From NCBI GenBank assembly GCA_045888315.1, contig JBGCVQ010000001.1, positions 1 to 56,612 on the forward strand: DNA of 56,612 bases, given 5' to 3'. Shown piece after piece: positions 161-16,454 of this stretch. Source of the stretch: Anaerolineales bacterium. GTDB taxonomy: Bacteria; Chloroflexota; Anaerolineae; Anaerolineales; UBA11858. The notes below the pieces were generated by a model. The model had not been told where the DNA came from. It made no database searches and saw only the letters and a program-made list of their open reading frames with translations. How positions within the stretch are numbered: the stretch's first letter is position 1; every line of letters starts with the position of its first letter. Made by a program: the position numbers and the translations under genes.

Positions 161-430
161 TTAAATCCCGGCTTCTGGACCCAGGCCGGCATCGATCAGG
201 GATTCCGTATCATACAGTTCCTGGAGCAGTTCTAAGCTCTTTTGAGCTTCTTCTTCATCCAGCACGCTGATCGCAAACCCGACATGGATGATCACATACT
301 GCCCGATCTCGACCTCGGGCACGACTTCCAGGCAGGCCTCCCGGATCACTCCCCCAAAATCCACCTTGGCCATCCTGATGCCCCCCGCATCATAGAGTTC
401 GATCACTTTTCCAGGTACACCTAAGCACAT
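161..430 (-). CDS. hypC: [NiFe] hydrogenase maturation chaperone HypC/HupF family
   Basis: An internal Met gives the N-terminus MCLGVPGKV, the HypC signature with the essential Cys2. GGGAGG lies 5 nt upstream of ATG 430. The track ORF (161..451) carries a 7-aa extension that would bury Cys2. Confidence 0.85.
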   Translation of the reverse strand: MCLGVPGKVIELYDAGGIRMAKVDFGGVIREACLEVVPEVEIGQYVIIHVGFAISVLDEEEAQKSLELLQELYDTESLIDAGLGPEAGI

Positions 431-476
431 ACTACCTCCCAAAAAATTCAACCGCTAATTAGTTTACAAGCGCTCC

Positions 477-1529
477 TTACTCGGCTGGCAAGACCGCCCG
501 GGCGAAATCAAGGGGCTCAATTCCGGGAGATTCGATTCCATGCTGCTGGTAGAATCCCCGGATGGCATTCAGGATGGTCTCCTGGTCCGCCGGCAGGTTC
601 TCCAGGGTATTTTCCAGCCCCACCAGGTCCTTGGCGGGGTAGAAGAAGAAATCTCCTGAGAGATGGACATCTCGCAGGAACCCATCTTCCTGCACGGCGG
701 CAACCTGGATCAATCCTCCTGCTGCCTTATAGGCTTGGTGGATGACATAAACACCTTCCCTGATTTTAACCGACTCTTCAGCCTGGCGGTTATCATTCTC
801 AAACAACCAATCATTGGTGTACATTCGCTCGAAGATCTCGTCCGCTTTGGCCATCAGTTCGCCATCAACCTGATATTTGATAGGATGGCTGCCGAGCAGA
901 GGGACATAACGGCTGATGAGGTCTTCCGCGATCAGGGCCGTGTCGGGCATTTCTCCGGTCACGTCCTTGATCGTGGTCAGATTTTCCCGGAGCGTTTTGA
1001 AGACCTTGTCCCGGAATTTCTCATCCGGGACCCGGAGGCATTTGCTCATGGTCTCATGGTCGAAATCCAGGATGAGATTCCCAACCAGGATGATCATGTC
1101 ATTGATCTCCGCCGCACCGTTCCCGGAGATCTTCTGGTGCTGATAAAGGATATCATTGACGGGTTTATAGACAGCATCCACGCCAAAAGCCCGGTAGGAG
1201 CCCACAACCGGCTCCAGGAATTTGCGGTAGAAATCAGCTTTTTTGGGGGGAACTTGGGGATGATCAGCCCGCAGCACCAGCTGATAGAACAGCTGGTGAC
1301 CGTCCAGGAAGACCGCGCCGCCTCCTACCTCCCGCCGGAAGACCGGGATCCCCTGTCTGGCAGTAAACTCGAGGTCGATGACCTGCCTGGCGTTCTGGTG
1401 ACAGCCGATACACACGTATGGGGTTGCCGGTCTGAGCATGAAGAGCGCTTCCTGCCCTAAATAAGCAGCCGCATGATAGAGAGCCTGGCTGTGTTCCCAG
1501 GAAACCTGGTCTAGAAAATAATACTCCAC
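477..1529 (-). CDS. lplA: Two-domain lipoate-protein ligase (LplA / Lpl(AB)-like)
   Basis: RREVGGGAVFLD matches the LplA RRxSGGGAVFHD motif. HQKISGNGAAE contains the catalytic Lys motif KxSGxA. The C-terminal region (NDWLFEN ... VHLSGDFFFYP) resembles the LplA accessory domain. I place the start at GTG 1529, preceded by AGGAAGG, not at the track start 1928. Confidence 0.75.
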   Translation of the reverse strand: MEYYFLDQVSWEHSQALYHAAAYLGQEALFMLRPATPYVCIGCHQNARQVIDLEFTARQGIPVFRREVGGGAVFLDGHQLFYQLVLRADHPQVPPKKADFYRKFLEPVVGSYRAFGVDAVYKPVNDILYQHQKISGNGAAEINDMIILVGNLILDFDHETMSKCLRVPDEKFRDKVFKTLRENLTTIKDVTGEMPDTALIAEDLISRYVPLLGSHPIKYQVDGELMAKADEIFERMYTNDWLFENDNRQAEESVKIREGVYVIHQAYKAAGGLIQVAAVQEDGFLRDVHLSGDFFFYPAKDLVGLENTLENLPADQETILNAIRGFYQQHGIESPGIEPLDFARAVLPAE

Positions 1530-1567: not shown

Positions 1568-2047
1568 TTATACCCTGTCCCAGTCGGCAATGATCCTTTC
1601 TGCCCTGGCAAGCAGATCGGGGATGACAGCTGAGATCTCCGGACTCAGCTCGGTACCGATTCCCAGATCGAACGGCACAGCGCCCACCAGGTGCAGATGA
1701 CCGGGCAGCTTCTCGCGGAATCTTGCCAACCCCAGCACCTCTTGAAAGGTGATCTGGTGATCGGACATCTTGATCCCGGTGTACATGGGGATCTCGTCCC
1801 CGTCCAGTTCGATCACGGATCCTGGATCCTGGCGGGCATTCACCGCATCCAGGATCAGCAGATGGCTGGCTCCCTCCACCCAGGAGAGCAGGTTCAACCC
1901 CAGCACTCCCCCATCCACGAATTCCCACCCGGGAAGATCTCCCAGACGGGCCTCCAAGGCCTTGAGGGCGTGTACGCCCAACCCTTCATCCTTATTCAAG
2001 GTGTTACCTAAACCAAGAACGATTTTTCTACCTGGTTGATCAGTCAT
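1568..2047 (-). CDS. [NiFe] hydrogenase maturation endopeptidase (HyaD/HybD/HupD family)
   Basis: IVLGLGNTLNKDEGLGVH, LILDAV and MSDHQITFQEVL are typical of HybD-type proteases. It lies directly downstream of the large subunit, which carries a cleavable C-terminal extension. Confidence 0.9.
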   Translation of the reverse strand: MTDQPGRKIVLGLGNTLNKDEGLGVHALKALEARLGDLPGWEFVDGGVLGLNLLSWVEGASHLLILDAVNARQDPGSVIELDGDEIPMYTGIKMSDHQITFQEVLGLARFREKLPGHLHLVGAVPFDLGIGTELSPEISAVIPDLLARAERIIADWDRV

Positions 2048-2108: not shown

Positions 2109-3854
2109 TTAGCGGATGATCTGACAAACACTCAGTCCGGTACCGACCTCACCCAGGTCCTGGCCTTCCGCGTCGATCATGTGAATGGCACAGGCCATGC
2201 AAGGATCGAAGGAATGGATGGTCCGCAGGATCTCCAGGGGCCATTCCGGTTTTGCCAGGGGCGTGCCAACCAGGGAAGCCTCATATGCCCCGGGTTTTCC
2301 GTTGTGATCCCGGGGAGAGGCGTTCCAGGTCGTAGGCACGACCATCTGGTAGTTGTCGATCTGGCCGTTCTCGATCACGATCCAATGGCCCAGGGCGCCG
2401 CGGGGGGCTTCCATGTAGCCAAATCCCCTGGCAGATTTCGGCCATGTGTTCGGCTCCCATTTCTGGTCATTGAAGGTCTTGGTATTCCCAGCCGCGATGG
2501 CAGCCACCAGGTCATCATACATACCTGTCATGGCATCGGCAAAGACCTTGGTCTCGATCCCCCGGGCAGCGGTGCGGCCCAGGGTGGAGAAAACTGCCTC
2601 CAGCGGGGCGCCCAGGGTCTTGAGGACGTAATTGGTCAGTTCCTGGGTTTGCTCATGACCCGAAGCGTACATGACCAGCACCCGGGCCAAGGGGCCGACT
2701 TCCATCGGCGTGTCATTCCAGCGGGGCGCTTTCAACCAGGAATATTTCTGATCGACCTCCAGGAAATCATAAGGAGGGTAAGGACCGGTGAACTTGAACT
2801 CGGTCTCCCCTTCCCAGGGATGCAAGCCTTTTCCATCCCCACCCTGATAGTCATACCAGGAATGGGTCACGAATTCCTTCATGAGGTCGAAGTCGCGGGG
2901 ATTGGGCTCGATGATATTGTTGAGGTCGCGGCCCATGATCACGGCCCTGGGAACCAGGAATTGGGATGTGTCGCTGTTATCCGGCCCCGGGAACTCACCC
3001 CAGGTCAGGAAATTCCCCAGGCCCTCTCCCAAGGAAGCGTATTCCAGGTAATAGGGCGCGATGGCCAGCAGGTCGGGGATATAGACCTGGTCCACGAATT
3101 CCTGCATGCGCTGGATGGAATCCTTGATGATCGATAGGCGGCTGATATTCAAAGCGGTATCGCTGTTGACGTCGATCGGCATGGGGACACCACCGACCAC
3201 GAAGTTCGGATGGGGGTTCTTGCCGCCAAAGATGGTGTGGATCTGAGTGACATGGGACTGCCAGTCCAGAGCTTCCAGATAATGGGCAACAGCCAGCAAG
3301 TTCACTTCCGGGGGCAGCTTATAAGCTGGATGCCCCCAGTAAGCATTGGCGAACAGGGAAAGCTGCCCACTGTCAACAATGCGCTGGACTTTGGCCTGCA
3401 CATCCGCAAAATAACCCGGCGAAGAATTCTTCCAGGCTGAAATGCTCTGCTGGATCTGACTGGTCACAGCGGGATCAGCCTTGAGGGCAGAAACCACATC
3501 CACCCAGTCCAGGGCGTGCAGATGGTAGAAATGCATGACATGGTCATGGACATACTGCTGGGCGATCATCAAATTGCGGATCAGGTTGGCCGCTTCCGGG
3601 ATCTGGATGCCCAGGGCATCCTCCACCGAGCGGATCGAGGCAAAGGAATGCACCGTGGTGCAAACCCCGCAAGCCCGCTGGGTGAATGCCCAGGCTTCCC
3701 GTGGATCACGGCCTTTGAGGATCTTCTCGATCCCCCGCACCATGGTGCCGGAGGAGTAGGCGCTAGCGATCTTGTTGTCAGCATCGAGTTCCGCTTCGAT
3801 TCGCAGATGGCCTTCAATACGTGTAATGGGATCAATCACTATTCTCTCAGTCAT
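2109..3854 (-). CDS. hynL: [NiFe] hydrogenase large subunit, group 1 membrane-bound uptake type (Isp-type context)
   Basis: It has N-terminal RIEGHLRIE and RACGVCTTVHS (RxCGxCxxxH). The C-terminal DPCMACAIH is followed by a 23-aa extension for proteolytic maturation. Confidence 0.95.
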   Translation of the reverse strand: MTERIVIDPITRIEGHLRIEAELDADNKIASAYSSGTMVRGIEKILKGRDPREAWAFTQRACGVCTTVHSFASIRSVEDALGIQIPEAANLIRNLMIAQQYVHDHVMHFYHLHALDWVDVVSALKADPAVTSQIQQSISAWKNSSPGYFADVQAKVQRIVDSGQLSLFANAYWGHPAYKLPPEVNLLAVAHYLEALDWQSHVTQIHTIFGGKNPHPNFVVGGVPMPIDVNSDTALNISRLSIIKDSIQRMQEFVDQVYIPDLLAIAPYYLEYASLGEGLGNFLTWGEFPGPDNSDTSQFLVPRAVIMGRDLNNIIEPNPRDFDLMKEFVTHSWYDYQGGDGKGLHPWEGETEFKFTGPYPPYDFLEVDQKYSWLKAPRWNDTPMEVGPLARVLVMYASGHEQTQELTNYVLKTLGAPLEAVFSTLGRTAARGIETKVFADAMTGMYDDLVAAIAAGNTKTFNDQKWEPNTWPKSARGFGYMEAPRGALGHWIVIENGQIDNYQMVVPTTWNASPRDHNGKPGAYEASLVGTPLAKPEWPLEILRTIHSFDPCMACAIHMIDAEGQDLGEVGTGLSVCQIIR

Positions 3855-3865
3855 AATATCTGCTC

Positions 3866-4189
3866 CTACTGCTCGCGCAACCAGGCCAGCGCTTGTTCCT
3901 CGGACTGGAAGTGACGAACCTCGTGTACATAGTAGCTGTCAGGGATCTCAAGTGTTACCGGGTCGAGATCAGCGCCGATGATGGCTGAAATCGGCATCAT
4001 AGGGCGAAACTGTTTCAGCTGCGCAGCGCATTCCTCCCCGGTCGTACCGCTCAGGTCGATCAGCAATTTCCCGTGGTAGTCCGCCAGGAAATTGGCCAGC
4101 GACCGCACATCTTCATGGGAGAACTTGCTGGTATGAACACAGCGCAAGATCCCTTTTTCCACAGGTGTAAGTGTAAAGGATGCCGTCAT
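3866..4189 (-). CDS. Hypothetical 107-aa protein inserted between isp2 and hynL, possibly SpoIIAA/STAS-like
   Basis: The ORF fills the gap exactly, with 10-11 nt spacers on each side. KLLIDLSG and the C-terminal VRHFQSEEQALAWLRE resemble STAS/SEC14-like (DUF3478-type) proteins. The fold call is weak. Confidence 0.55.
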   Translation of the reverse strand: MTASFTLTPVEKGILRCVHTSKFSHEDVRSLANFLADYHGKLLIDLSGTTGEECAAQLKQFRPMMPISAIIGADLDPVTLEIPDSYYVHEVRHFQSEEQALAWLREQ

Positions 4190-4199
4190 CTGATACCTC

Positions 4200-5459
4200 C
4201 TAGGTTTCTAAGGCGTCGGCTACCATTTGAGCGAAGCCAGCCACTTTGACATCCAGATTGAAATGACCCACGCAGTCCGTGAACTGCAGGCGGCAGTTGG
4301 AGCAGGCCATCACCACCGTATCTGCACCGATTTTCTCGAGCTGGTCCATCTTCAATTCGAAGACAGCATAGCGTAGAGGGTCGGCGTCCTTGATGGCGAT
4401 CACGCCTCCACCGCCGCCGCAGCAGATCGCCTGCTCTTTATTGGGACTCATCTCCTTGAAGGAATCCGGAGCCAGGATGTTCATGACCAGGCGGGGTTCC
4501 TTGATATGGCCGCCATTGCGCTGGATCTTGCAGGCGTCATGAAAGGTGATGGTGCCGTTGTTGTAGGCGTTTGCCTTGAGCTTGATGCGCCCGGATTCGA
4601 CATATTCGCCGATCAGCCCCACGATGTGGGTGATCTCCAGGTCCGGGGGAACGTCGACCAGGTTGTAGGCTGTCCAGCGCAGCGCGTCATAAGCGTGACC
4701 GCATTCAGTGACCACGATCTTCTTGACACCCATCTCTTGCGCGCCATCCAGCACCCGCTTGAGGATCACTTTGGTATGCGCCTTACTCCCCTCATAAAAA
4801 CCGAAGTTCACGACCTCCCGGGCTTTAGAGCTCAGGGTCCAGTTCTCTCCAGCCGCATTAAGGATCTCGGCAATGGCAGCCAGGTTCTGGGGAAATTTCA
4901 TGATCTCGATCGAGGAGAATACCACCAGGGTCTCGGCGTCTTTCTTGTCGAGGGGGATATCGACCTCCCACTCATCCTGTACGAAATCTATCCTCTCCGA
5001 GAAGACATCGTCAGTGACGCCTAGCGGGCTGCCCTCATCGAGCTGCTTCTGGACCGCGTCCTCCAAATCTGTGGGAACAACTCCCGCGGCCACCAAGCCG
5101 GTGCGCACATCCGCGATCAAGTGGCCGATATCGATGCCCATCGGGCACACCAGGGCGCATTTGTTGCAGACCGTACAAGCGTGGTAGACATACGAGCTCC
5201 AGTTCTGGAGGTCCTCTTCTGTGACCCGCTTATCAACCCCAAGAGCCAGTTTGATCTTACCGCCCAGGGTGAAGCGCTGCTCGTAAGCTTTGCGGAGCAG
5301 CTCGAACTTCCAGACCGGGGCATATTCGGGAACGCCGGTTGCCTGGTAGAAGTGGCAGGCCTCTGCGCACATACCGCAGCGGGTGCAAGCTTCCAGCTGC
5401 GATGCAACTCGGGAACCAGTTTCCCTGATAAATGTATCAATTGCGTTTTGAGTGTCCAT
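4200..5459 (-). CDS. isp2: Isp2: HdrD/DsrK-like Fe-S protein with two 4Fe-4S ferredoxin motifs and CCG cysteine-rich domains
   Basis: Motifs seen: CTRCGMCAEAC, CTVCNKCALVCP, and CCGGGGG ... CSNC (CCG domain). It has no signal peptide. Its position after isp1 matches hynS-isp1-isp2-hynL operons. Confidence 0.88.
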   Translation of the reverse strand: MDTQNAIDTFIRETGSRVASQLEACTRCGMCAEACHFYQATGVPEYAPVWKFELLRKAYEQRFTLGGKIKLALGVDKRVTEEDLQNWSSYVYHACTVCNKCALVCPMGIDIGHLIADVRTGLVAAGVVPTDLEDAVQKQLDEGSPLGVTDDVFSERIDFVQDEWEVDIPLDKKDAETLVVFSSIEIMKFPQNLAAIAEILNAAGENWTLSSKAREVVNFGFYEGSKAHTKVILKRVLDGAQEMGVKKIVVTECGHAYDALRWTAYNLVDVPPDLEITHIVGLIGEYVESGRIKLKANAYNNGTITFHDACKIQRNGGHIKEPRLVMNILAPDSFKEMSPNKEQAICCGGGGGVIAIKDADPLRYAVFELKMDQLEKIGADTVVMACSNCRLQFTDCVGHFNLDVKVAGFAQMVADALET

Positions 5460-5471
5460 ATCTGACCTCTA

Positions 5472-6149
5472 CTAAGGGTTGACTCCACGTTTTCCGAAAT
5501 AAATCCCCTGCCTGGTGCGGGAGAAGAAATAGAAAATGAAGTGGGAGATGCGGCTGAGGGGAATCCAGATGAGCAGGAAATCCACCGTCAGCATATGCAG
5601 CGCGAAGGCTTTCTCATAGGGATTGATGAGATGGTGCGTCATCAGGTAGCCGCTGACCATGGGCAGGAAGACCAGGGTCCAGTTCAACCATTCTGCCGGT
5701 CCGGTAAGAAGCTTCATGACCGGATTGACCAGGCGGTTGATCAGCAGGGCGATCATGGCCACGATGGATACCGCTGCCAGCCAGTCTGTGATCGGAAGTG
5801 GTAGGGTAGGCCACCCGAAACCAAGCAGGCTCTTCCAGGCCAGCATATGGGGGGTTCCCAAGATGAGGACAACCAGCAGTCCCAGGTGGAACAACCCGCC
5901 AGCCAGGTAGGTGACCATATTCTTTGAGAAAGTCCGCTTTACCCAGGGAATGAAAGGCCAGACGATCCCGCCTTTCAAATAGGACTTGACCACCCCACCC
6001 AGCTTGCTTCCCATGGAGGGTACCTTGTCCTTCTTCCAGGCCAGGAAAATCACCCTGGCAAGGCGGTATGTCATACCGCCTATAAACACCAACCACGCCA
6101 CCTTGAACAAGGGTCCGCGTGCGAATTCAAGAAGTGTATACCAGTTCAT
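5472..6149 (-). CDS. isp1: Isp1: NarI/DsrM/HdrE-like integral membrane b-type cytochrome
   Basis: About five hydrophobic helices carry His residues (FHLG, PHML, THHL, LHML, SHF). It lies between the small subunit and the HdrD-like gene. Confidence 0.8.
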   Translation of the reverse strand: MNWYTLLEFARGPLFKVAWLVFIGGMTYRLARVIFLAWKKDKVPSMGSKLGGVVKSYLKGGIVWPFIPWVKRTFSKNMVTYLAGGLFHLGLLVVLILGTPHMLAWKSLLGFGWPTLPLPITDWLAAVSIVAMIALLINRLVNPVMKLLTGPAEWLNWTLVFLPMVSGYLMTHHLINPYEKAFALHMLTVDFLLIWIPLSRISHFIFYFFSRTRQGIYFGKRGVNP

Positions 6150-6158
6150 GATTATCTC

Positions 6159-7280
6159 CTAGTCTCCATCCTGTGCGGGTTGGGCATCATCCGTGGTCTT
6201 CTTTTTTGCCTTGCCGATGGAAGAGACTGCCGCACCTGCGACAGCTCCTGCCGCAGCGGCAGCACCGACCATGGTGACCTCAGGCCTGGTGAGTGGAGCG
6301 GATTGTCCTTGATAGAATCCGCCGCCATCCCAGAAATTAGGCTCTGAGCAGCCCAGGCAGGGATGTCCGGATTGAACCGGGAATGATAACCCCTGGTCCC
6401 ACTTCATCACCGCGCAGGCGTTGTAGGTGGTGGGTCCCTTGCAGCCCAGCTTATACAGGCACCAGCCCTGCTTGGCACCTTCATCATCGAACGATCCAGC
6501 AAACTTGCCGGCCTCATAGAAGGGGCGCCGCAGGCAGCGATCGTGGATGGTGTGACCATAGAAAGGCATGGGCCGATTGAGGCTGTCCAGTTCTGGCAGC
6601 GCTCCGAAGACCACGAAGTGGGCCACGGAACCAGTGAAGACCTCCGGGATCGCCGGGCAGCCGGGAATGTTCAAGACCGGTTTATCGGTGATGATCTCCC
6701 AGACTCCTTTGGCTCCCGTGGGGTTAGGTTTAGCCTTGGGAAGTCCGCCAAAGGCAGCACAGTTCCCGGTGGCTATGATGGCAGCTGCGCCATCGGCTGC
6801 TTCTTTCAGCAGATCCAAAGCCGAACGGCCGCCTATGGTGCAGTACGCCCCATTCTCACCTGAAGGAATCGAGCCTTCGACCACTAGAACATACTGGCCG
6901 CGATACTGCTCCATGACGCTCTCTTTATTGGCTTCGGTTTGAAAACCAGCGGCTGCGGTCAGGGTCTCATGGTATTCCACTGAAATGACATTCAGGACCA
7001 GGTCGATCAATGTTGGGGACTGGGAGCGGGTCAAGGCTTCACTGCATCCAGCACAATCCTGGAATTCCAGCCAGATGACCGGGACCCGCGGCTTGGATTC
7101 CAAAGCCCGGGCAACCTGCTTAGCGGTCACTGCCCCCAGATCTGTGGGCGTTTTCCCCATCTCGAAGGGAGGAAGCTGACCCAGGCCCATAACCCCTGCC
7201 AGCATCCCACACATCTTGATGAAATCCCGCCGCGAAACGCCTTCCTTCTGTAGATGTTCGTAAATCGTTTCCTCGGGCAT
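6159..7280 (-). CDS. hynS: [NiFe] hydrogenase small subunit with Tat signal and C-terminal membrane anchor
   Basis: SRRDFIKMCGMLAG is a twin-arginine signal. Fe-S cysteine patterns are present (QDCAGCSE, GNCA, PGCP, CxxC... CLGCSEP). The C-terminal Ala/Gly-rich helix is followed by KAKKK. Confidence 0.95.
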   Translation of the reverse strand: MPEETIYEHLQKEGVSRRDFIKMCGMLAGVMGLGQLPPFEMGKTPTDLGAVTAKQVARALESKPRVPVIWLEFQDCAGCSEALTRSQSPTLIDLVLNVISVEYHETLTAAAGFQTEANKESVMEQYRGQYVLVVEGSIPSGENGAYCTIGGRSALDLLKEAADGAAAIIATGNCAAFGGLPKAKPNPTGAKGVWEIITDKPVLNIPGCPAIPEVFTGSVAHFVVFGALPELDSLNRPMPFYGHTIHDRCLRRPFYEAGKFAGSFDDEGAKQGWCLYKLGCKGPTTYNACAVMKWDQGLSFPVQSGHPCLGCSEPNFWDGGGFYQGQSAPLTRPEVTMVGAAAAAGAVAGAAVSSIGKAKKKTTDDAQPAQDGD

Positions 7281-7307
7281 CGTGATTTTCTCCTTTTCCA
7301 GCGCTGG

Positions 7308-7754
7308 TTACTCGCAGGAAACCCCATCTTCCTCTAACTTGGCTTTATAAGCATCTAGCCCTTCCGAGCCAGTAGCCAAGGAACCCTTTTCGCCATCCCA
7401 GTCCTCAGCCTTGATCTCTGCGATCCAGCCCTCCCCATAAGGATCTGAGACCACGATATTGGGATCGCTGGCCAGCTTGTCATTCCCACGGAGCAGCTCA
7501 CCCGTGACGGGAGCGGGAACCGGACCCACGAATTTACTGGATTCGACGGTCGCAGTGCTCTTTCCCTGGGGGACGGTCTTGCCGACCTTCCTGTCGCTGA
7601 CTGTCACTGCCGTAAACGAGCCCCCGGCCAGCTTGGTCGCTACTGCGGTCATACCGATCCGGATCACATTCTCACCCATGGGCTTGGCCCAGACATGTTT
7701 CTCGATCAGGTAATAGAGATCATCGGGTAGATCACATCCATTGATTTTTGCCAT
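7308..7754 (-). CDS. GcvH-family lipoyl carrier; candidate LbpA-type lipoate-binding protein
   Basis: TVESSKFVGPVPAPVTGEL ... SDPYGEGWIAEIK aligns with the GcvH core VESVKA...PVSGE...EPYxxGW. The candidate lipoyl Lys is K74. No gcvT or gcvP is in the window. Confidence 0.8.
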   Translation of the reverse strand: MAKINGCDLPDDLYYLIEKHVWAKPMGENVIRIGMTAVATKLAGGSFTAVTVSDRKVGKTVPQGKSTATVESSKFVGPVPAPVTGELLRGNDKLASDPNIVVSDPYGEGWIAEIKAEDWDGEKGSLATGSEGLDAYKAKLEEDGVSCE

Positions 7755-7766
7755 CTTGCCTCCTCC

Positions 7767-8135
7767 TTAAAATGTCAGGACCGTTTTGCAGTCGTCTGCC
7801 ACAGACCACATATATGCCCCACCAACCATCTTGATCCCATCCAGCATGTCCTCTGCTTTGAGATCGTGCAGTTCCATCGATGCCGTGCAGGCAGTGAATT
7901 CCACTCCTGCTTCCAGAGCGTCATTGAGGAATTTGCTGACGGGCTCCCCCCCTTCCTTGGGGAATACCTTCTCCGCTGCACCTTTCTTGAGCAGCTGGGT
8001 CCCGTCAATGGTGAAGAACATGGTGACTTCATAGTCCATAGCGGCAGCCAGGGTCGCGAAGAAAAAAGGGGTCGCGCAGCGCCGGGGGGTTTCCGGCCCA
8101 CTGGTCATGATGATCAATACCTTATCCTCGTCCAA
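7767..8135 (-). CDS. DsrE/DsrF-family sulfur-relay protein (122 aa)
   Basis: ETPRRCATPFFFA has the DsrE-type active-site Cys context (Cys20). A second Cys lies in FTACTASMELH. The size and alpha/beta pattern fit the DsrE family. Confidence 0.75.
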   Translation of the reverse strand: MDEDKVLIIMTSGPETPRRCATPFFFATLAAAMDYEVTMFFTIDGTQLLKKGAAEKVFPKEGGEPVSKFLNDALEAGVEFTACTASMELHDLKAEDMLDGIKMVGGAYMWSVADDCKTVLTF

Positions 8136-8174
8136 CGTTTCCTCCTCTTGGGTACTTCATTTTCAATTAACTTA

Positions 8175-8651
8175 CTAGAACGAAAGCGCGATGGCGTTGT
8201 CGCTGGCATACTCCAGGAAGGTGGCTGCGCCGCCAATCTCGACCCCATCGATCAGGTCTTCCTTCTTGATACCCATCACGTCCATGCTCATCTGGCAGCC
8301 GATTATCCTCACCCCACCCTCAACAGCTATTTCCAGCAGCTCGCTCAGCTTGGCGACATTGGCTTTTTTCATCCAGGAATTCATCATCATAGTCGCCATG
8401 GGGGTCATCCCAGGCAGCATACCAATGATGTTAGGGATCGGGACAGGCATAGCAGGATTGGCGATCGGGGCCACTTGCAGTTTATCCGCTTTGCCCTTCT
8501 TGATAATCTCCAAGCCGTAGAACGTAAAGAAAATTGCCGCTTCCATACCCAGGCCAAGCGCTCCAGTGGCAATGATCAGCGGTGGGTAGCCCGCGTCCAG
8601 GGTTCCATGAGCAGCAATGATCGCCACCCGATTTGCTTGATTATTTGACAT
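8175..8651 (-). CDS. DsrE/DsrF-like (COG2210-type, DsrE3-like) sulfurtransferase, 158 aa
   Basis: RVAIIAAHGTLD, the Met/Pro-rich insert NPAMPVPIPNIIGMLPGMTPMATMMM, and a conserved Cys in RIIGCQMSMDVMG (Cys119). Confidence 0.7.
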   Translation of the reverse strand: MSNNQANRVAIIAAHGTLDAGYPPLIIATGALGLGMEAAIFFTFYGLEIIKKGKADKLQVAPIANPAMPVPIPNIIGMLPGMTPMATMMMNSWMKKANVAKLSELLEIAVEGGVRIIGCQMSMDVMGIKKEDLIDGVEIGGAATFLEYASDNAIALSF

Positions 8652-8689
8652 TTTTCACCTCATTAACATACATAAATGGAATTTCAAGG

Positions 8690-8923
8690 CTACGCTTTCT
8701 TGATATAGAATGTGTAGGATCCTCCGTCCTCCTCATGACCGAGAAGCTCATGTCCGGTCTTCTTCGAAAAAGCCGTGACATCCGGGACCGAGCCGGGATC
8801 GGTGGAGATCATCTTCAGCACCTGGCCGGATTGCAGCTCGTCCATAGCCTTCTTGGTCTTGATGATTGGCATCGGGCAGGAAAGCCCACTAGCGTCCAGA
8901 ACCTGATCGAATTCGTATGTCAT
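8690..8923 (-). CDS. tusA: TusA/SirA-family sulfur carrier
   Basis: The 77-aa protein has LDASGLSCPMPI (CPxP motif, Cys16). Confidence 0.9.
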   Translation of the reverse strand: MTYEFDQVLDASGLSCPMPIIKTKKAMDELQSGQVLKMISTDPGSVPDVTAFSKKTGHELLGHEEDGGSYTFYIKKA

Positions 8924-8953
8924 GATTGTTCTCCTTTATTCTGTCGATTTCCG

Positions 8954-9703
8954 TTAACTTTTATGGATACTGCTCATCTCTGAGATCACCTTCAGCCGCC
9001 GGAGCATCTCAGCTCTTTCTGTGCTGATATCCCCGAAAGTTTCCGCCACCTCAGCGATCCAGGTGGCAATCTTGGCCTGTTTGCGTTCATCAAGTACCGG
9101 CAGATCGGCTGCGGCTTTCAGCAGTTCAGCGCGGTCAATCCCATATTCCTCAGCCAGGCGGCTAATTTCCCGGTCCCGCTCTTCAGGATCAGGCTGGTTG
9201 AGATAGAACTGGCCGGCAACGATCATCGCGCTGGGCTTGTCTTCCACCATGATAAAACCCCGGGCGTAACGCAGGCCGGCGTGGCAGCTGTGAAAGATGG
9301 GGCGCGTGTCGCGCTCCTGCGCTAATTCCTTCCAGGAATCCAGACAGGCCTGGTGGCCAGCTGGGCTGTCCTGGATCAGTTCGCAGAATCTTGAGCAGTG
9401 GCTCATCTCTGAAAGAGGCTGGCCCTCCATATCCGTGACCACCGCGCCGACTTCCGCAATCTGGGAAAATACATTCTGGATGGATTGGATGCAGTGCAGG
9501 GGAAGGATCTCAGTAGGAGCCGAATCGACCACCTCAGCGTCGTGAGTCAGGGAGAGCAGCTTATCGATCTCTTCCTGCCGGAATCTCCAATGACTGCCAA
9601 CCTTAATGCCTTCTAGCCTGCCGTCTTTAAGCATGCGGTAGATAGTGGTCCTATCCACATTGAGCAGTTTTTGCACTTGTTTGGCGGTGAGTAGCTCTGT
9701 CAT
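8954..9703 (-). CDS. Transcriptional regulator: excisionase/MerR-type HTH plus PocR sensory domain
   Basis: The N-terminus TAKQVQKLLNVDRTTIYRMLKDGRLEGIKVGSHWRF is an HTH. The Cys/His-rich PocR-like core reads HCSRFCELIQ...GHQACLDSW...FHSCHAGL. Confidence 0.75.
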   Translation of the reverse strand: MTELLTAKQVQKLLNVDRTTIYRMLKDGRLEGIKVGSHWRFRQEEIDKLLSLTHDAEVVDSAPTEILPLHCIQSIQNVFSQIAEVGAVVTDMEGQPLSEMSHCSRFCELIQDSPAGHQACLDSWKELAQERDTRPIFHSCHAGLRYARGFIMVEDKPSAMIVAGQFYLNQPDPEERDREISRLAEEYGIDRAELLKAAADLPVLDERKQAKIATWIAEVAETFGDISTERAEMLRRLKVISEMSSIHKS

Positions 9704-9717
9704 AGGACCTCACTATA

Positions 9718-9791
9718 CAATAGTTTGCATGTGTTTGCAATAGTTTATTATAAAATACTAGTGTTTTTTCACCAGAATGTGACATTTGTCA
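9718..9791. promoter_or_regulatory. Candidate promoter/operator region of the regulator-tusA-...-hydrogenase operon
   Basis: A minus-strand TATAAT lies at 9747..9752. The direct repeat CAATAGTTT occurs at 9718..9726 and 9738..9746. The palindrome TGACATTTGTCA lies at 9780..9791. Confidence 0.35.
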
Positions 9792-9964
9792 TGGATATCT
9801 GACCCTATCCACTCCTAATAAGCAGGATCCCAAGGTGCACATGATGTGTACTGGCAATCCGCTTAATTGACAAAAAGAAAGGACCTCGGGGGTCTTTTAG
9901 TTAAAGGTTAAAGGTTATAATTTCTAAAGCAATTCTAAAACTATCCTCAAGGAGATCCCCCACT

Positions 9965-11455
9965 ATGAAAACCCAGCGTTTTGAGGTCCTGAGCCAGTCA
10001 GAACTGGACCAGATCCATGCCGCCTCGATGGAGATTCTAGAGGAAGTAGGCATCAAGGTACCCTGGAAGCCAGCCCGAGATTATTACCGCGAGAAAGGCG
10101 CCAGAGTCGATGACGATGCCCAAGCCGTAAAAATACCCGAATCACTTGTCATGTGGGCCCTGGACCAAGCGCCGTCTGAATTCAAGCTATATGGAAACGA
10201 CCCAGAATTCCAGCTCCAGATCGGTGGTGAACAGTTAAATCCAGTCTTTGCCGGGTTGGGCACTCCGCTCAGTGTGGTCGACCTAGACAGCGGTGAGACC
10301 CGGAAAGCGAGTTTTCAGGATACCCTAGAGCATATCATCCTGGTCAATGCCTGCCAGAACATCCACAACACTCAGATGGATGTCTGGCCAGATGATATTC
10401 CCATGACCACCATCCACACCGAAGCCATTTGGGCCTGGGCCCATAACAGTCGCAAAGCCTATGGGATGGGCTGCTACGGCTACCTTCCTACCTGGGACAT
10501 GATGCGCATGATGGCCTTGGCGGTGGGGGGTAAAAAAGAACTCCGGGAACATCCCCGCTTTTTAGCCATTTGCTCCGTGGTCAGTCCCCTCCAGATGGAC
10601 CAGGCCCAGGCGGAGGGCATGTTCATCTGCGCAGATTACGGCCAACCGCTGGCTATATCCCCGGAAGGCATCGCCGGGGCAACCGCGCCGGTCACCCTGG
10701 CGGGACTGCTAGCCCAGGAGAATGCCAACATCCTGGCGCATATCACCCTGTCCCAGATCTACAAGCCTGGGGCACCGGTGCTCTATGGGACAGTCTCCAC
10801 GGTCGCCAATATGCGGGACGGCTCAGTGGCGCTGGGTGCCCCGGAAACCGGCTTGATCACCGCCGGTTCCGCCCAGCTAGCCCGCCGCTACGGGCTCCCC
10901 ATCCGCAGCGTGGGAGGCACCACGGAATCGAAACGAGCAGATGTCCAGGCTGGTTTTGAGCGCCTGGGCAGTCTGCTCCCAGCAGTCTTGGCGGGGGTCA
11001 ACCTGATCACCTGTGCTGGTACGCTGAGCGGCACCATGTTGGAAGATCATGCCCTGCTCATGCTGGACGATGAGTTTTGCGGTGCTGCACTGCGGATCGC
11101 CCGCGGGATCGAGGTCACTCCAGAGACACTCGCCCTGGACCTGATCAAGCAAACCGGCTATGAAGGGAATTATCTGGCAGCTGATCACACAGTGGAAAAC
11201 TTCAGAGAAGAGCTGTTCATTCCCTCGCTGTTCTCTCGGCAGACCGATGTCGATTGGGAAGAGAGCGGCCGCAAACAAGCCCTTGATCTTGCCAGGGAGA
11301 AGGTCAGGCAGGTGCTGGCAGATCACCAGCCTCGCCAGCTTGACCCTGCCGTTGAAAAAAGTATGGAAGAATTCCGAGCGATGGTCGCCGAACGTGATTT
11401 GAACGATTTTTATAACTACGAACAGCCCGAATACCAGGACTTTGACAACTTATGA
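9965..11455 (+). CDS. MttB-superfamily (trimethylamine methyltransferase family) protein, non-pyrrolysine type
   Basis: The 496-aa protein has an N-terminus typical of the family (FEVLSQSELDQIHAASMEILEEVGIKV). The frame is uninterrupted, with no internal TAG. Confidence 0.8.
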   Translation: MKTQRFEVLSQSELDQIHAASMEILEEVGIKVPWKPARDYYREKGARVDDDAQAVKIPESLVMWALDQAPSEFKLYGNDPEFQLQIGGEQLNPVFAGLGTPLSVVDLDSGETRKASFQDTLEHIILVNACQNIHNTQMDVWPDDIPMTTIHTEAIWAWAHNSRKAYGMGCYGYLPTWDMMRMMALAVGGKKELREHPRFLAICSVVSPLQMDQAQAEGMFICADYGQPLAISPEGIAGATAPVTLAGLLAQENANILAHITLSQIYKPGAPVLYGTVSTVANMRDGSVALGAPETGLITAGSAQLARRYGLPIRSVGGTTESKRADVQAGFERLGSLLPAVLAGVNLITCAGTLSGTMLEDHALLMLDDEFCGAALRIARGIEVTPETLALDLIKQTGYEGNYLAADHTVENFREELFIPSLFSRQTDVDWEESGRKQALDLAREKVRQVLADHQPRQLDPAVEKSMEEFRAMVAERDLNDFYNYEQPEYQDFDNL

Positions 11456-12807
11456 ACAACGACCAGAAACTCTCTCTCCGTACCAAGCTGCTATTCAGCA
11501 CAGGGGACCTGAGCACCAGCATTCCCCTGGCGATCCTGATGTTCTTCCAGCTGTATTTCTTAACCGATATTGCCGGTTTGCGTCCAGACCTGGCCGGGTA
11601 CGCAGTAGGACTGCCCCGCATCTGGGACGCCATTAATGATCCCCTCTTCGGTTTGATCTCCGACCGCATCCGCACCCGCTGGGGCAGGCGTCGGGTCCTG
11701 CTGCTGTTTGGCTCTGTACCCCTGGGATTGAGCTTCATTTTCATGTGGCTGGTCCCAAATCTGGGGCAGATCGGATTGGCTTTCTATTATGCGATCGTTT
11801 TCATTGTCTTCGATACAGCCTTTACTGTGGTCCATGTCGGCTACAACTCCCTGACGCCAGAAATGACCAGCGATTATGACGAGCGCAGTTCCCTGAATGG
11901 TTATCGGATGGTATTCTCGATCAGCGGCACCCTGGGCGCTATTATCTTGGCGACGGTACTGGGCTGGTATATCGCAGACTCCCGGACCTTATTTTCCATC
12001 CTGGGCATCGGATTGGGTCTGATCTCAATCATCCCCCCCCTGATCGTCTTCCGGATCACACATGAAAAACCGGCTGAGGAGCTTCCCGAACCCCTTTCGC
12101 TGGGAACAGCCCTGAAACAAACCCTCACCAATCAACCCTTCCGGATGGTGATGGGACTGTACCTGCTGAGCTGGACCACAGCCAGCATCCTGGCTGCTGT
12201 GCTGGTGTACTATGCAAATTATTATCTAAGGGTGCCAGATCAAGCCAATTATTTCGTGCTGGTGGCGGAAGGAGCTGCCATACTCTTTATCCCGTTCTGG
12301 GTCTGGGTTTCCCGGGTTTTGGATAAACGGAGGGCTTTTATACTTGGTTCACTAAGCTGGATCGTGGTGCTCCTGGGCATTTATCTCCTGCCTGCAAACC
12401 AGGTACTCCTGGCCTATTTACTTGCTGGCCTCTCCGGTTCTGGAATCGCCACCGCCTATGTACTGCCCTGGGCGATGATCCCGGACGTGGTGGAGCACGA
12501 CGAATTACGCTCCGGCCAGCGCCGGGAGGGATCCTATTATGCCTTTGCCTCCTTCTTCCAGAAGTTAGCCACTGGCGCTGCGCTGTGGGGCATGGGGATG
12601 GCCCTATCCCTGACCGGTTACATCACTCCCCCTTCCAGCGGCGCCCTACCCGTGCAGCCAATTCAGGCCGTGGATGCCATTCGCTTCTTTATTGGCCCCG
12701 TGCCCACGGTCCTGCTAATCCTGGCTGTACTGTTCGCCTGGCGGTACCCGATAACTCGCGAGAAACACCAAGAAACACTTCAAGCCCTTGCCGATCGGGA
12801 AATGTAG
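11452..12807 (+). CDS. GPH-family (MelB-like, MFS superfamily) cation symporter
   Basis: About 12 TM segments. WDAINDPLFGLISDRIRTRWGRRR is the GPH signature. The start overlaps the mttB stop (ATGA). Confidence 0.8.
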   Translation: MNNDQKLSLRTKLLFSTGDLSTSIPLAILMFFQLYFLTDIAGLRPDLAGYAVGLPRIWDAINDPLFGLISDRIRTRWGRRRVLLLFGSVPLGLSFIFMWLVPNLGQIGLAFYYAIVFIVFDTAFTVVHVGYNSLTPEMTSDYDERSSLNGYRMVFSISGTLGAIILATVLGWYIADSRTLFSILGIGLGLISIIPPLIVFRITHEKPAEELPEPLSLGTALKQTLTNQPFRMVMGLYLLSWTTASILAAVLVYYANYYLRVPDQANYFVLVAEGAAILFIPFWVWVSRVLDKRRAFILGSLSWIVVLLGIYLLPANQVLLAYLLAGLSGSGIATAYVLPWAMIPDVVEHDELRSGQRREGSYYAFASFFQKLATGAALWGMGMALSLTGYITPPSSGALPVQPIQAVDAIRFFIGPVPTVLLILAVLFAWRYPITREKHQETLQALADREM

Positions 12808-12852
12808 CGATTCAGGATTCAATCTCTCACCCATCAGATAGCAGGAGGGGAT

Positions 12853-14118
12853 ATGGATGATTTCAAAGCCTTTGAGACCCTGGCGATCCATGCCGGCGAA
12901 GCAGCCGATCCAGAAACCGGTGCCTTGAGAACACCGATCCACATGACGACCACTTTTCAGCTGCCAAAATTCGGCACTAAACTCTTCGATGCCCTGTTCA
13001 TGGAGAGGCCGGACAGCCCCTATGTCTACACGCGCTGGAGCAATCCTACCCTGCGCTCTCTTGAAGTACGCCTGGCAGCTTTAGAGGAAGCCGAGGAATG
13101 TGCTGTCTTTGCCAGCGGCGTGGGTGCCATTTCTGCCTTGGTGCTCACCCTGCTGAGCGCGGGTGATCATCTGGTCAGCAGTGATGTCTGCTATGCCGGA
13201 GCCTTGGAATTATTTACCCTTCATCTACCCCGCTTCGGGATAGAGGTCAGTCTGGTTGACAGCAGCGATCCAGAACAGGTCCAGGCTGCCCTGAAAGAAA
13301 ACACAAAATTAATTTACATTGAGACGCCTGCCAATCCTATCTTGAAACTGACCGATATCAAGGCGATCAGCCAGATCGCTCGCGATGCAAATATCCCCCT
13401 GGCAGTTGATTCCACTTTCGCCAGCCCGGTCCTCCAGAAACCCCTTAATCTGGGAGCCGATTACGTGGTCCACAGCCTGACAAAATACATCAACGGCCAC
13501 GGGGATGCGCTGGGCGGAATGATCGCCGGCTCAACCGACAAGATCCACCACATCCGCAAGGAGATGCTAGTGCATCTGGGTAGTGCGATGAGTCCCTTCA
13601 ACGCCTGGCTGATCAACCGGGGGATCAACACCCTGGCTTTACGGGTCAGACAGCAGTCAGCCAGCGCTATGAAGGTCGCCCAATTCCTTGAAAAACATCC
13701 GGCAGTGAAACGCGTAATCTACCCGGGTCTGGAAAGCCACCCCCAACATGAACTTGCCAGAGAGCAGATGGATGGATTCGGGGGGATGCTCAGCTTCCAG
13801 CTGAAAGCCGGACTGGAGGGAGCGATCAACTTGGCAGAGAATGTCAGGCTGTTCCAGTACGCAACATCCCTGGGCCATGCTCACAGCCTACTTTTCTACT
13901 ACCCTAGTGATCTATACGTAGATGCGGTTTCGTATTACAGCGAGAAGCAGAAAACACAGATCCGGGAATGGACTGGGGAGGGAGTTTTTCGCACCAGCAT
14001 CGGGTTAGAGGATCCAGACGACCTGATTAAAGATCTGGACCAAGCGCTGAAAGCAAAATCCATCAAAGGGAAAATTGCTCCCATGGTATATGAGCTTCTC
14101 AAGAAATACACGGGATAA
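12853..14118 (+). CDS. PLP-dependent Cys/Met-metabolism enzyme (methionine gamma-lyase / O-acylhomoserine sulfhydrylase-like)
   Basis: The N-terminus FETLAIHAGE and the PLP lysine motif HSLTKYINGHGD fit the family, as does the length. Confidence 0.8.
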   Translation: MDDFKAFETLAIHAGEAADPETGALRTPIHMTTTFQLPKFGTKLFDALFMERPDSPYVYTRWSNPTLRSLEVRLAALEEAEECAVFASGVGAISALVLTLLSAGDHLVSSDVCYAGALELFTLHLPRFGIEVSLVDSSDPEQVQAALKENTKLIYIETPANPILKLTDIKAISQIARDANIPLAVDSTFASPVLQKPLNLGADYVVHSLTKYINGHGDALGGMIAGSTDKIHHIRKEMLVHLGSAMSPFNAWLINRGINTLALRVRQQSASAMKVAQFLEKHPAVKRVIYPGLESHPQHELAREQMDGFGGMLSFQLKAGLEGAINLAENVRLFQYATSLGHAHSLLFYYPSDLYVDAVSYYSEKQKTQIREWTGEGVFRTSIGLEDPDDLIKDLDQALKAKSIKGKIAPMVYELLKKYTG

Positions 14119-14122
14119 AAAA

Positions 14123-14153
14123 GACCTCCGAGGTCTTCCCGACCTCGGAGGTC
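14123..14153. repeat. REP-like palindromic element, also a likely bidirectional terminator
   Basis: GACCTCCGAGGTC-TTCCC-GACCTCGGAGGTC forms a 13-bp stem between convergent genes. The A6 run on its 5' side gives a U tract for the minus-strand gene. Confidence 0.7.
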
Positions 14154-14159
14154 AGTTAT

Positions 14160-14486
14160 TCACTGCAGGATCTGCAGCATCTGCTTGCGATAGCGCTGGA
14201 AAGCTTGCCGTCCAGCTTCGGTCAGCGAGATCATCGTTTGGGGGCGGTTATCCTTATAGCCCTTTTCGACCTCGATGTATCCCGCCTCCTGGAGCTTGCT
14301 GATATGGGCGGACAAGTTTCCCATGGTCAAGCCCAACCGGCTGACCAGGAAAGTGAAATCAGCGCTTTCCAAGAGGGACAGGAAGGCCAGCACCTTCAAC
14401 CGGGCCGGTTCATGGACCAGGCGGTCTATCTCCTGATCCAGAGTGAGTTTTTCCTCAGGATTCCCAGCCATATCACGCCTCCCCAC
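14160..14486 (-). CDS. Winged-helix transcriptional regulator (ArsR/MarR-like)
   Basis: HEPARLKVLAFL ... LGLTMGNLSAHISKLQEAGYIEVEK is a wHTH pattern. Confidence 0.7.
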   Translation of the reverse strand: MGRRDMAGNPEEKLTLDQEIDRLVHEPARLKVLAFLSLLESADFTFLVSRLGLTMGNLSAHISKLQEAGYIEVEKGYKDNRPQTMISLTEAGRQAFQRYRKQMLQILQ

Positions 14487-15078
14487 GAACGATGGGATAC
14501 TTTCCCAGGAAGCGGATCAGCACAGCGAGCCCAGCTGCCAGGATCAACCCACCGGCGCTGATCACAGCCACCAGGAAGGGATCGAAGGCGGTCACACTCT
14601 GGCTGAGCAGGTTCCCCCCGGCCATGGCCAGGAAGACCAGACCTCCATAGTAGTAGAACCTGGCTGTATCCAGCACCAACCCCAGCGAACTGATGCCCAG
14701 GGCGACCACCAACCCGAAGAGACTCAGCGAGTAGCGGGCAAACAGCGAGCCGCCTCCTCCTGCTCCGGCTGCGAGGAAAAGGGTAAAAACCCCTGCCCCT
14801 AAGAGGATCAGCGTGATGAAAAAGCTCTTAAAGCGATCCTTCATCTCCCGTCCGGGCTTGATGGAGCCCACCCGGGGTATGACCAGGCTGCCTTTTCCGA
14901 GATACCACACCGACAGGGCCAGCAGGCCCAGCAGACTTACCAGCGCGGGAAAGTCCAGCAGCAGCAGAAGGCCAAAGCCCAGGATGACCAGGCCAACTGC
15001 GATATCCACCAGACCGTCCTCGGCATAATACAGGAATACCTGGCGCCGGATATCCTTGAGGTCCAAACTTTCTTTCAT
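14473..15078 (-). CDS. Hypothetical polytopic membrane protein co-transcribed with the wHTH regulator
   Basis: About six hydrophobic helices. Its 3' end overlaps the regulator start by 14 nt. Confidence 0.6.
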   Translation of the reverse strand: MKESLDLKDIRRQVFLYYAEDGLVDIAVGLVILGFGLLLLLDFPALVSLLGLLALSVWYLGKGSLVIPRVGSIKPGREMKDRFKSFFITLILLGAGVFTLFLAAGAGGGGSLFARYSLSLFGLVVALGISSLGLVLDTARFYYYGGLVFLAMAGGNLLSQSVTAFDPFLVAVISAGGLILAAGLAVLIRFLGKYPIVRGEA

Positions 15079-15554: not shown

Positions 15555-15586
15555 GAGCTGCTTCATTTTACACGACACGCCGAACA

Positions 15587-16420: not shown

Positions 16421-16454
16421 ATCCCTCACTCCTTGCTCCCGTTCCAATACAAGC

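Follow-up and report, generated by a model that had tools for sequence, protein, structure and literature searches.

An Isp1/Isp2 membrane module conserved with sulfur- and lipoyl-carrier genes in a hydrogenase operon of Anaerolineae

Introduction

Isp-type [NiFe] hydrogenases carry, besides the small subunit HynS and the large subunit HynL, the membrane-embedded Isp1 and the iron-sulfur protein Isp2. That Isp1 is a b-type cytochrome, that Isp2 is Hdr-like, and that the pair resembles DsrMK and HdrDE is already published (PMC11018855, PMC10892978). The Thiocapsa enzyme Hyn (HydSL) is reversible, and its only reported in vivo role is the H2-dependent reduction of elemental sulfur (PMC10892978). 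Ever since Isp hydrogenases were first described, the acceptor that Isp2 serves in the cytoplasm has been a matter of conjecture; an AlphaFold2 (AF2)-Multimer model of an archaeal Isp hydrogenase placed Isp2 on the cytoplasmic face of the membrane, with NAD+ or ferredoxin as guessed acceptors (PMC11018855). Here we describe an operon of this hydrogenase type in a stretch of 56,612 nucleotides (hereafter the window), contig JBGCVQ010000001.1 of the Anaerolineales assembly GCA_045888315.1, in which the isp genes lie among genes for sulfur carriers, a lipoyl carrier protein of the LbpA type and a lipoate-protein ligase.

Two other systems bear on this operon. In DsrMKJOP, as seen by cryo-electron microscopy and described in a preprint, DsrK holds a single noncubane cluster, and Asp500 replaces the 'supernumerary' cysteine of HdrB (10.64898/2026.08.25.746951). 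Cys329 of DsrK is strictly conserved, does not ligate the cluster, was seen persulfidated and is proposed to relay sulfur, His331 is the proposed proton donor, and the arm of the small carrier DsrC swings into the DsrK pocket (10.64898/2026.08.25.746951). LbpA proteins belong to sulfur oxidation by the sHdr complex. Cao et al. separated sHdr-associated LbpA from GcvH by a pair of cysteines, one N-terminal and one near the C-terminus, and found lbpA genes 'inevitably' associated with shdr genes (PMC6067878); the type II sHdr clusters have since been defined (PMC11094781). LbpA and the sulfur transferases have so far been tied to the sHdr complex (PMC6067878, PMC11094781), and an operon that joins them to Isp2 gives each side a testable partner. 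The adjoining sulfur- and lipoate-carrier genes point to a likely candidate partner of Isp2.

A first-pass annotation, made from the letters of the window, had proposed that Isp1 and Isp2 form a DsrMK/HdrDE-like transmembrane module facing a cytoplasmic sulfur relay. Homology, predicted topology and gene context support this as an in silico interpretation. The identities of the parts, their conserved ligands, the predicted sidedness and an obligate gene linkage are established in silico.

The Operon and Its Conservation

The genome carrying the operon is a 2.54-Mb assembly, 90.5% complete, and its nearest relatives bear the names Anaerolineales or Anaerolineae. Positions 4200-6149 of the window hold two genes, both on the minus strand, isp2 (4200-5459) and isp1 (5472-6149). 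They lie within a block that runs in this same direction from a gene for a PocR regulator to hypC, with intergenic gaps of 9-61 nucleotides. The order hynS-isp1-isp2-(107-amino-acid open reading frame)-hynL, with gaps of 9-12 nucleotides, is that of Isp-type hydrogenases (PMC11018855). A small subunit exported by the twin-arginine translocation (Tat) pathway, a b-type cytochrome Isp1 and an Hdr-like Isp2 are all present, as judged from TIGR01409 and from profile and fold matches. HynS (6159-7280, minus strand) matches TIGR00391 (1e-131), and HynL (2109-3854, minus strand) matches generic models only (PF00374, 2.1e-229; PRK10170). We read Isp1 and Isp2 as the pair that carries electrons across the membrane in a bacterial [NiFe] hydrogenase of the Isp type (group 1e-like).

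The strongest evidence comes from gene context. A scan with Isp2, limited to one genome per species, gave 314 relatives, of which the best 80 (63-88% identity) were kept. The order PocR-TusA-DsrE-DsrE-LbpA-HynS-Isp1-Isp2-(STAS)-HynL-HynD-LplA was found in 80/80 of these best loci, wherever the contig extends far enough. Most of the 80 are from Anaerolineae, and several lie on long contigs in genome bins named Ignavibacteriota, Calditrichia, Bacteroidetes, Aminicenantes and Actinomycetota. Because some of these other-phylum loci share a distinct sub-order, HynD-HypC-LplA, simple mis-binning is argued against. An even sample of the class comprised 201 genomes. The genomes compared here are related to one another, so that the counts are descriptive rather than statistical. 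Nine of the 201 encode a close Isp2, and in each of the nine a close LbpA is encoded on the same strand at a distance of 1.9-2.4 kb.

The carriers also occur beside Isp-like pairs elsewhere. Two loci among more distant relatives (L086, positions 3892-8794, and L087, in genomes G096 and G134; L and G are our own numbers for loci and genomes) have the order thioredoxin-TusA-DsrE-DsrE-NarI-like-DsrK-like-LbpA without a hydrogenase. Their LbpA has the same Cys/Lys/Cys signature as that of the operon, and the NarI-like protein of the hydrogenase-free cluster matches PF02665 (1.7e-16). In three more loci (L089-L091), either (PocR)-DsrE-TusA or DsrE adjoins an Isp1-like/Isp2-like pair. Since clusters of carriers with a NarI-like/DsrK-like pair exist without a hydrogenase, the carriers follow the Isp-like pair and not the hydrogenase.

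A lipoyl protein beside a CCG protein recurs as a pairing in the class, the operon being one instance. Cross-matching the match tables of the 201-genome sample by hand gave about 30 further CCG-protein genes with a GcvH/LbpA-like gene within 3 kb, and seven of these loci (L092-L098) were examined. The GcvH-like gene directly follows the CCG-protein gene in 7/7, at least five of the GcvH-like proteins are free of cysteine, and in 3/7 a ligase 50-52% identical to the LplA of the operon comes next. For these loci, this suggests that the lipoyl group itself is the partner of the CCG protein. The seven GcvH-like proteins share a conserved ...KYGK end (KYDK/KYEK in two loci). One of the loci (L097, positions 3374-10239) encodes, by Pfam, an Hmc-like set of an FeS protein, NrfD, a multihaem cytochrome c, an HdrD-like protein with two CCG domains, a Cys-free GcvH-like protein and LplA. 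Three other loci (L099-L101) are sHdr-like clusters found by tblastn, with LbpA proteins that have the same termini as that of the operon, are 46-49% identical to it and rank as its nearest relatives. L100 (positions 4855-19951) holds, by Pfam, the type II set HdrC1-B1-A-hyp-B3-EtfBA-EMO with two or three LbpA genes, LplA and DsrE. One LbpA protein of L099-L101 ends in ...CVHCEG[FY]EMP.

Isp2

Isp2, an Fe-S protein of 419 amino acids, matches Pfam Fer4_8 (2.3e-11) and has a single CCG domain (residues 304-393, 1.2e-13). Two ferredoxin-type CxxCxxCxxxC(P) motifs had been annotated and both are present, C25-x2-C28-x2-C31-x3-C35-His and C95-x2-C98-x2-C101-x3-C105-P, with the proline closing the second only and a histidine following the first. 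The CCG motif is where it had been read (C310...C346-C347-GGGGG...C386-S-N-C389). The N-terminal CCG half is degenerate, and C253-G-H255 alone is retained from it. All 14 motif cysteines and H255 are invariant in 79 homologues with a mean per-column identity of about 71%, so the pattern is not due to chance. The description of Isp2 as an Hdr/DsrK-like CCG protein stands in the singular: there is one CCG cluster site, as in DsrK, and not the two of HdrD.

Among NCBIfam models, Isp2 matches DsrK (1.3e-68) with 231.7 bits, below the cut-off of 400, and also HmcF and TmcB; true DsrK proteins of Chloroflexota score 509-734 bits. In the AF2 model (predicted local distance difference test, pLDDT, 80), the best structural match is EtfD (TM-score TMq 0.74), and HdrB matches across the CCG half (TMt 0.60-0.65). 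Four true DsrK genes of Chloroflexota (NF045796, 715-734 bits) served as the reference for alignment. Isp2 is 26-28% identical to their products, whose HD-x-C, CCG and two ferredoxin motifs line up with its own. The ECGH motif, which contains C253 and H255 of Isp2 and corresponds to C329/H331 of AfDsrK, is common to Isp2 and the four true DsrK proteins, column for column. The final motif differs, being C-A-I-D in true DsrK and CxxC (C386/C389) in Isp2 and every Isp2-like protein examined, so that the aspartate which in DsrK stands instead of the supernumerary cysteine (D500 of AfDsrK) is a cysteine in Isp2, a change in one cluster ligand. The DsrK layout of two ferredoxin [4Fe-4S] motifs and a single CCG domain is the layout of Isp2.

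By its sequence, Isp2 is a DsrK relative with the single-cluster layout and the putative Cys-x-His relay motif, which has kept the Hdr-type fifth cysteine. It was rejected as DsrK proper, on account of its score below the cut-off, CxxC in place of CxxD and a genome without DsrC. It was also rejected as HdrD, which has two CCG domains against one in Isp2, where the N-terminal half is left with C253 and H255.

Isp1 and Membrane Sidedness

Isp1, of 225 amino acids, is a predicted five-helix di-haem b-type cytochrome. Its earlier description as a polytopic protein with intramembrane histidines is borne out by five helices, predicted from hydropathy and the AF2 model, and by five histidines invariant in 70 homologues (H88, H101, H173, H185, H203). 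H88 and H101 are on helix 2, H185 and H203 on helix 5, 18 residues apart. Five helices with two histidines each in helices 2 and 5 is the pattern of di-haem cytochromes b, and haem binding is predicted. We take H88 and H203 to be the candidate ligands of the inner haem and H101 and H185 those of the outer, as in NarI.

Among NCBIfam models, Isp1 matches TmcC (8.7e-37; 126.7 bits with a cut-off of 240) and HmcE (2.2e-29; 102.7 with a cut-off of 275), in both cases under the equivalog cut-off. Both models describe Desulfovibrio cytochromes b of the NarI type, from the Tmc and Hmc complexes respectively. Pfam gave no match to Isp1, with none to PF02665 at E <= 0.01; of the searches against PDB chains, that with the single sequence gave one chance match (E 0.08) and that with a profile none. 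The AF2 model (pLDDT 85.5) superposes end to end on Escherichia coli NarI with Z 11.2-11.7 and a root-mean-square deviation of 4.0-4.6 A over 169-179 residues, the best (Z 11.7) having 4.2 A over 175 residues. The membrane part of Mycobacterium smegmatis EtfD gives Z 9.8 and generic helical bundles Z <= 8. For an all-helical protein this margin of the NarI fold over generic bundles is modest, and it should be read together with the profile matches. Because the PDB sequence searches gave nothing useful, the link of Isp1 to NarI therefore rests on the fold and on the TmcC and HmcE models of NCBIfam. In the closest related metagenome-assembled genome (MAG; 88% identity), the isp1 gene (L004, positions 559-1233) has an in-frame TAG at codon 178, which may be a sequencing error, a pseudogene or a recoded codon.

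Sidedness was assigned from hydropathy, the positive-inside rule, fold similarity and natural fusions, with a hydrophobic segment defined by a Kyte-Doolittle (KD) value >= 1.5 over 19 amino acids. The distribution of lysine and arginine in Isp1, nine in the loop of residues 36-78 and four in the C-terminal tail, implies that its N-terminus is outside and its C-terminus inside. Isp2 has, as annotated, no signal peptide: it lacks a hydrophobic segment, a twin-arginine (RR) motif and, by hydropathy, a membrane helix. HynS has the reported Tat signal (SRRDFIK; TIGR01409, 3.1e-5) and, at about residues 335-355, a C-terminal hydrophobic anchor. The carriers had been taken as signal-free. This is so for TusA, the 122-amino-acid DsrE protein, LbpA and LplA, which have neither a hydrophobic segment nor RR, while the 158-amino-acid DsrE protein has one moderately hydrophobic stretch at residues 25-50. 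The 107-amino-acid STAS-like protein likewise has no hydrophobic segment and no RR motif.

In EtfD and in a 622-amino-acid NarI-HdrD fusion encoded by the source genome, the CCG part comes after the last membrane helix. By prediction, the CCG site of Isp2 faces the cytoplasm, as the first-pass annotation had placed it. A cytoplasmic Isp2 is supported by three independent lines, namely the missing export signal with the inward C-terminus of Isp1, the NarI-CCG fusions and the published archaeal model.

Sulfur and Lipoyl Carriers

LbpA (7308-7754, minus strand; PF01597, 4.7e-27), a GcvH-like lipoyl carrier, has the lipoyl-lysine K74 (ESSK), C7 (GC[DN]LP) and a penultimate C147 (G[IV]SC-x-COOH), all invariant in 70 homologues. 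It thus has the sequence features of sHdr-type LbpA, but its gene does not lie beside an shdr cluster, its partners being hyn and isp. Upstream of it are the genes for TusA (8690-8923, minus strand; NF001423, 1.8e-17), with an invariant C16 in the CPMP motif, and for two DsrE-family proteins. The first of these is a DsrE2-like sulfur carrier of 158 amino acids (8175-8651, minus strand; NF047629 DsrE2, 1.1e-49, under the cut-off) with an invariant C119, the second a sulfur transferase of 122 amino acids (7767-8135, minus strand; PF02635, 4.8e-17) with invariant C20 and C83. Besides its moderately hydrophobic stretch, the DsrE2-like protein contains a conserved loop rich in Met and Pro, PIANPAMP...GMLPGMT..MATMMMN, and an association with the membrane or a binding of metal or sulfur is possible.

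The lipoate-protein ligase LplA (477-1529, minus strand; PF21948, 4.2e-35), whose gene is conserved after hynD, presumably lipoylates LbpA. In the 107-amino-acid STAS/SpoIIAA-like protein encoded between isp2 and hynL (3866-4189, minus strand; PF11964, 5.1e-4, under the cut-off), C17 (RCxH) is invariant and C54 (EEC) nearly so. This protein, possibly another thiol component of the system, was found in 46-47 loci, in two of which (L044, L050) its gene lies upstream of PocR instead.

One other GcvH-family gene above the Pfam cut-off was found in the genome, with 146 bits against 95 for LbpA, and by this score it is taken to be ordinary GcvH. DsrC has no match above the cut-off in the 90.5%-complete genome, the best match to PF04358 reaching 21.5 bits of the required 24.9, and neither the window nor the rest of the genome yielded sHdr genes. 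Isp2 is thus left without a DsrC, and for LbpA no partner other than Isp2 is obvious. An sHdr complex encoded elsewhere in the genome was rejected as the partner of LbpA, as none of the other four CCG loci is sHdr. These are HdrCBA-MvhDGA, the NarI-HdrD fusion with Rieske and cytochrome b genes, an HdrA/MvhD/HdrCB-like set near POR, and MetFV with an HdrCB-like protein. On contig C51 of the source genome (L001), HdrCBA-MvhDGA is accompanied by a protease gene, with the NarI-HdrD fusion beside it, adjoining the Rieske and cytochrome b genes.

With four other CCG systems in the genome, LbpA and the other carriers might serve another enzyme, such as HdrCBA-MvhDGA or the NarI-HdrD fusion of contig C51, and be co-regulated with the hydrogenase only. 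None of these four loci has LbpA, TusA or DsrE, and in all genomes examined the carriers and the Isp pair are linked one to one, so that we regard this explanation as highly improbable.

A penultimate cysteine on a flexible C-terminus is the hallmark of DsrC. We infer, by analogy, that LbpA may parallel DsrC through C147.

The remaining genes of the block are those for the HTH-PocR regulator, HynD and HypC. The first (8954-9703, minus strand; PF10114, 6.8e-36) begins the block and lies upstream of tusA in most loci. The hydrogenase maturation protease HynD (1568-2047, minus strand; PF01750, 1.4e-24) and the maturation chaperone HypC (161-451, minus strand; PF01455, 5.3e-28) flank the ligase. 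Divergent from the operon, on the plus strand at 9965-14118, are genes for a non-Pyl MttB-family methyltransferase, a GPH/MFS_2 transporter and a Cys/Met-metabolism enzyme dependent on pyridoxal phosphate (PLP); an organosulfur or quaternary-amine route beside the sulfur-relay operon is possible.

Proposed Mechanism and Direction of Electron Flow

Probably, H2 is oxidised outside the membrane, its electrons pass through Isp1, and sulfur or a disulfide bound to a carrier is reduced by Isp2 inside, where the substrate, the role of LbpA, the order of the relay and the direction are what we infer. HynSL, exported by Tat, would oxidise H2 at the outer face of the membrane, and the electrons would traverse it via the two b-haems of Isp1 and then run through the two cubane clusters of Isp2 to the single noncubane [4Fe-4S] site in the cytoplasm. 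At this site the reduction of sulfane sulfur or a disulfide on the co-encoded carriers would yield sulfide and thiols. Delivery of the sulfur would fall to TusA and the two DsrE proteins and its presentation to LbpA, through the lipoyl arm, Cys7 and Cys147, and Cys253 of Isp2 would act as the relay and His255 as the proton donor, as proposed for DsrK. With protons released outside and consumed inside, the system would form an energy-conserving redox loop, working near equilibrium and possibly reversible.

The relevant potentials are -414 mV for H+/H2, -290 mV for lipoamide and about -270 mV for S0/HS-. The driving force from textbook potentials is about -24 to -28 kJ per H2, roughly what it takes to move two charges against 120-150 mV. 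Because yield and cost are so similar, the loop would operate near equilibrium and could run in either direction, depending on H2 pressure, which fits the reversibility of the Thiocapsa enzyme (PMC10892978).

Reverse flow, which we consider unlikely, would lead from reduced LbpA (dihydrolipoyl or thiol) or carrier-bound sulfur through Isp2 and Isp1 to HynSL. The hydrogenase would evolve H2, driven by the proton-motive force, and serve fermentative or syntrophic Anaerolineae as an electron sink. Such flow is in line with the reversibility of Hyn-type enzymes (PMC10892978), with an H2/lipoamide couple that, on textbook potentials, would be near equilibrium once the energisation of the membrane is counted, and with the oxidative pathway from which LbpA, TusA and DsrE are known. 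A reverse redox loop via a twin-haem EtfD/EMO-type protein has been proposed in syntrophs (10.64898/2026.08.18.745454). Against it, reducing protons with electrons from sulfane sulfur oxidised to sulfite demands a large input of energy, the operon has neither an HdrA-type flavoprotein nor a sulfite-handling gene, and H2-dependent sulfur reduction is the sole role reported in vivo for the Thiocapsa enzyme (PMC10892978). The evidence does not discriminate between forward and reverse flow.

Several points weigh against H2-driven reduction of carrier-bound sulfur at Isp2. The driving force barely covers two charges across an energised membrane, which leaves the direction uncertain, and the roles known to date for LbpA, TusA and DsrE3-type proteins lie in the oxidation of sulfur rather than in its reduction. 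A physical hand-off is a proposal, with a lipoyl disulfide, a persulfide or a trisulfide as candidate substrates. The carriers are not a universal requirement of Isp2, since relay-less Isp hydrogenases occur in the same class and in classical purple sulfur bacteria. In L084 (positions 7448-13509) and L085, for example, the order is HynS-Isp1-Isp2-Isp2'-HynL, with tandem Isp2 paralogues 46-49% identical to Isp2, and no TusA, DsrE or LbpA was found on either contig. H255 of Isp2 aligns with the cluster ligand His583 of EtfD. The EtfD cluster equivalent to that of Isp2 (D2) is fully ligated, with His583 as a ligand, and was termed non-catalytic (PMC13083937). CCG clusters can thus be pure electron-transfer sites, and a sulfur-reactive site cannot be discriminated by sequence alone.

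The same observations on EtfD (PMC13083937) and the relay-less operons speak for a simpler arrangement, in which Isp1 and Isp2 wire the hydrogenase to the quinone pool and/or to ferredoxin/NAD+, the CCG site is a plain electron-transfer centre, and the carriers are co-transcribed for other ends, e.g., thiol homeostasis or sulfane-sulfur detoxification. Leung et al. proposed a quinone and a low-potential acceptor for the archaeal Isp pair (PMC11018855). The arrangement is hard to reconcile with carriers that adjoin Isp-like pairs even where there is no hydrogenase, with a block that is intact in bins from several phyla, with a dedicated LbpA ligase amid the hydrogenase maturation genes, and with the ECGH motif, which is the proposed sulfur-relay motif of DsrK. 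We judge it quite unlikely. Because of the hydrogenase-free clusters of carriers with Isp-like pairs and of the one-to-one linkage, both plain wiring and the service of the carriers to another enzyme are disfavoured.

The reduction of carrier-bound sulfur by Isp2 has a wider form, which we put forward tentatively as possible rather than probable. LbpA would stand to Isp2 as DsrC stands to DsrK, delivering zero-valent sulfur or a disulfide to the CCG pocket on its lipoyl dithiol and penultimate cysteine. In that case the operon would encode a respiratory loop, as yet undescribed, from H2 to protein-bound sulfur (or lipoyl disulfide), and lipoyl proteins would be the missing cytoplasmic redox partners of membrane CCG families (Isp, DsrMK-like, Hmc-like). 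The lipoyl-protein genes beside other CCG membrane complexes hint at such a general partnership, and the operon suggests how the abundant, mostly uncultured Anaerolineae couple H2 to sulfur cycling.

Comparison with Known Systems

Full-text literature searches, in which few subscription journals were covered, found no linkage of an Isp hydrogenase to TusA, DsrE, LbpA and LplA, and neither the hydrogenase-free nor the Hmc-like versions were found in them. A cultured carrier of the operon was sought via cluster names; none appeared, the records being from MAGs with generic 'Fe-S oxidoreductase' names only.

HdrDE of Methanosarcina and EtfD/EMO, the NarI-HdrD-like electron transfer flavoprotein (ETF):menaquinone oxidoreductase (PDB 9ojn), have the same two-module architecture as Isp1/Isp2. 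EtfD is the best structural match for Isp2 and, after NarI, for Isp1. HdrD and EtfD differ from Isp2 in having two CCG domains and two special clusters, where Isp2 has one, and the clusters of EtfD are electron-transfer centres for ETF and not sulfur-reactive (PMC13083937).

DsrMK, as part of the menaquinol:DsrC-trisulfide oxidoreductase DsrMKJOP, shares with the operon a NarI-type di-haem subunit and a cytoplasmic subunit with two cubanes, a single CCG domain and the ECGH motif. Its substrate sulfur is held on a small carrier with a penultimate cysteine, in which it is like LbpA. In contrast to that system, the genome is without DsrC, DsrAB and DsrJOP, and electrons would enter from the hydrogenase and not from quinol at DsrP.

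The sHdr-LbpA pathways of sulfur oxidation (types I and II) have the same accessory set, with TusA, DsrE-type transferases, a two-Cys LbpA and a dedicated LplA. They differ in the CCG partner, as the genome has no sHdrA, B1, B2 or C, and the partner is the membrane-bound, hydrogenase-tied Isp2.

The Isp-type (group 1e) hydrogenases of Thiocapsa and Allochromatium, with the archaeal 1g enzyme of Acidianus, have the same b-type Isp1, Hdr-like Isp2 and Tat-exported HynS and are likewise linked to sulfur metabolism. To these known Isp hydrogenases the operon adds TusA, two DsrE proteins, an sHdr-type LbpA, a lipoate ligase, a PocR regulator and the 107-amino-acid STAS-like protein.

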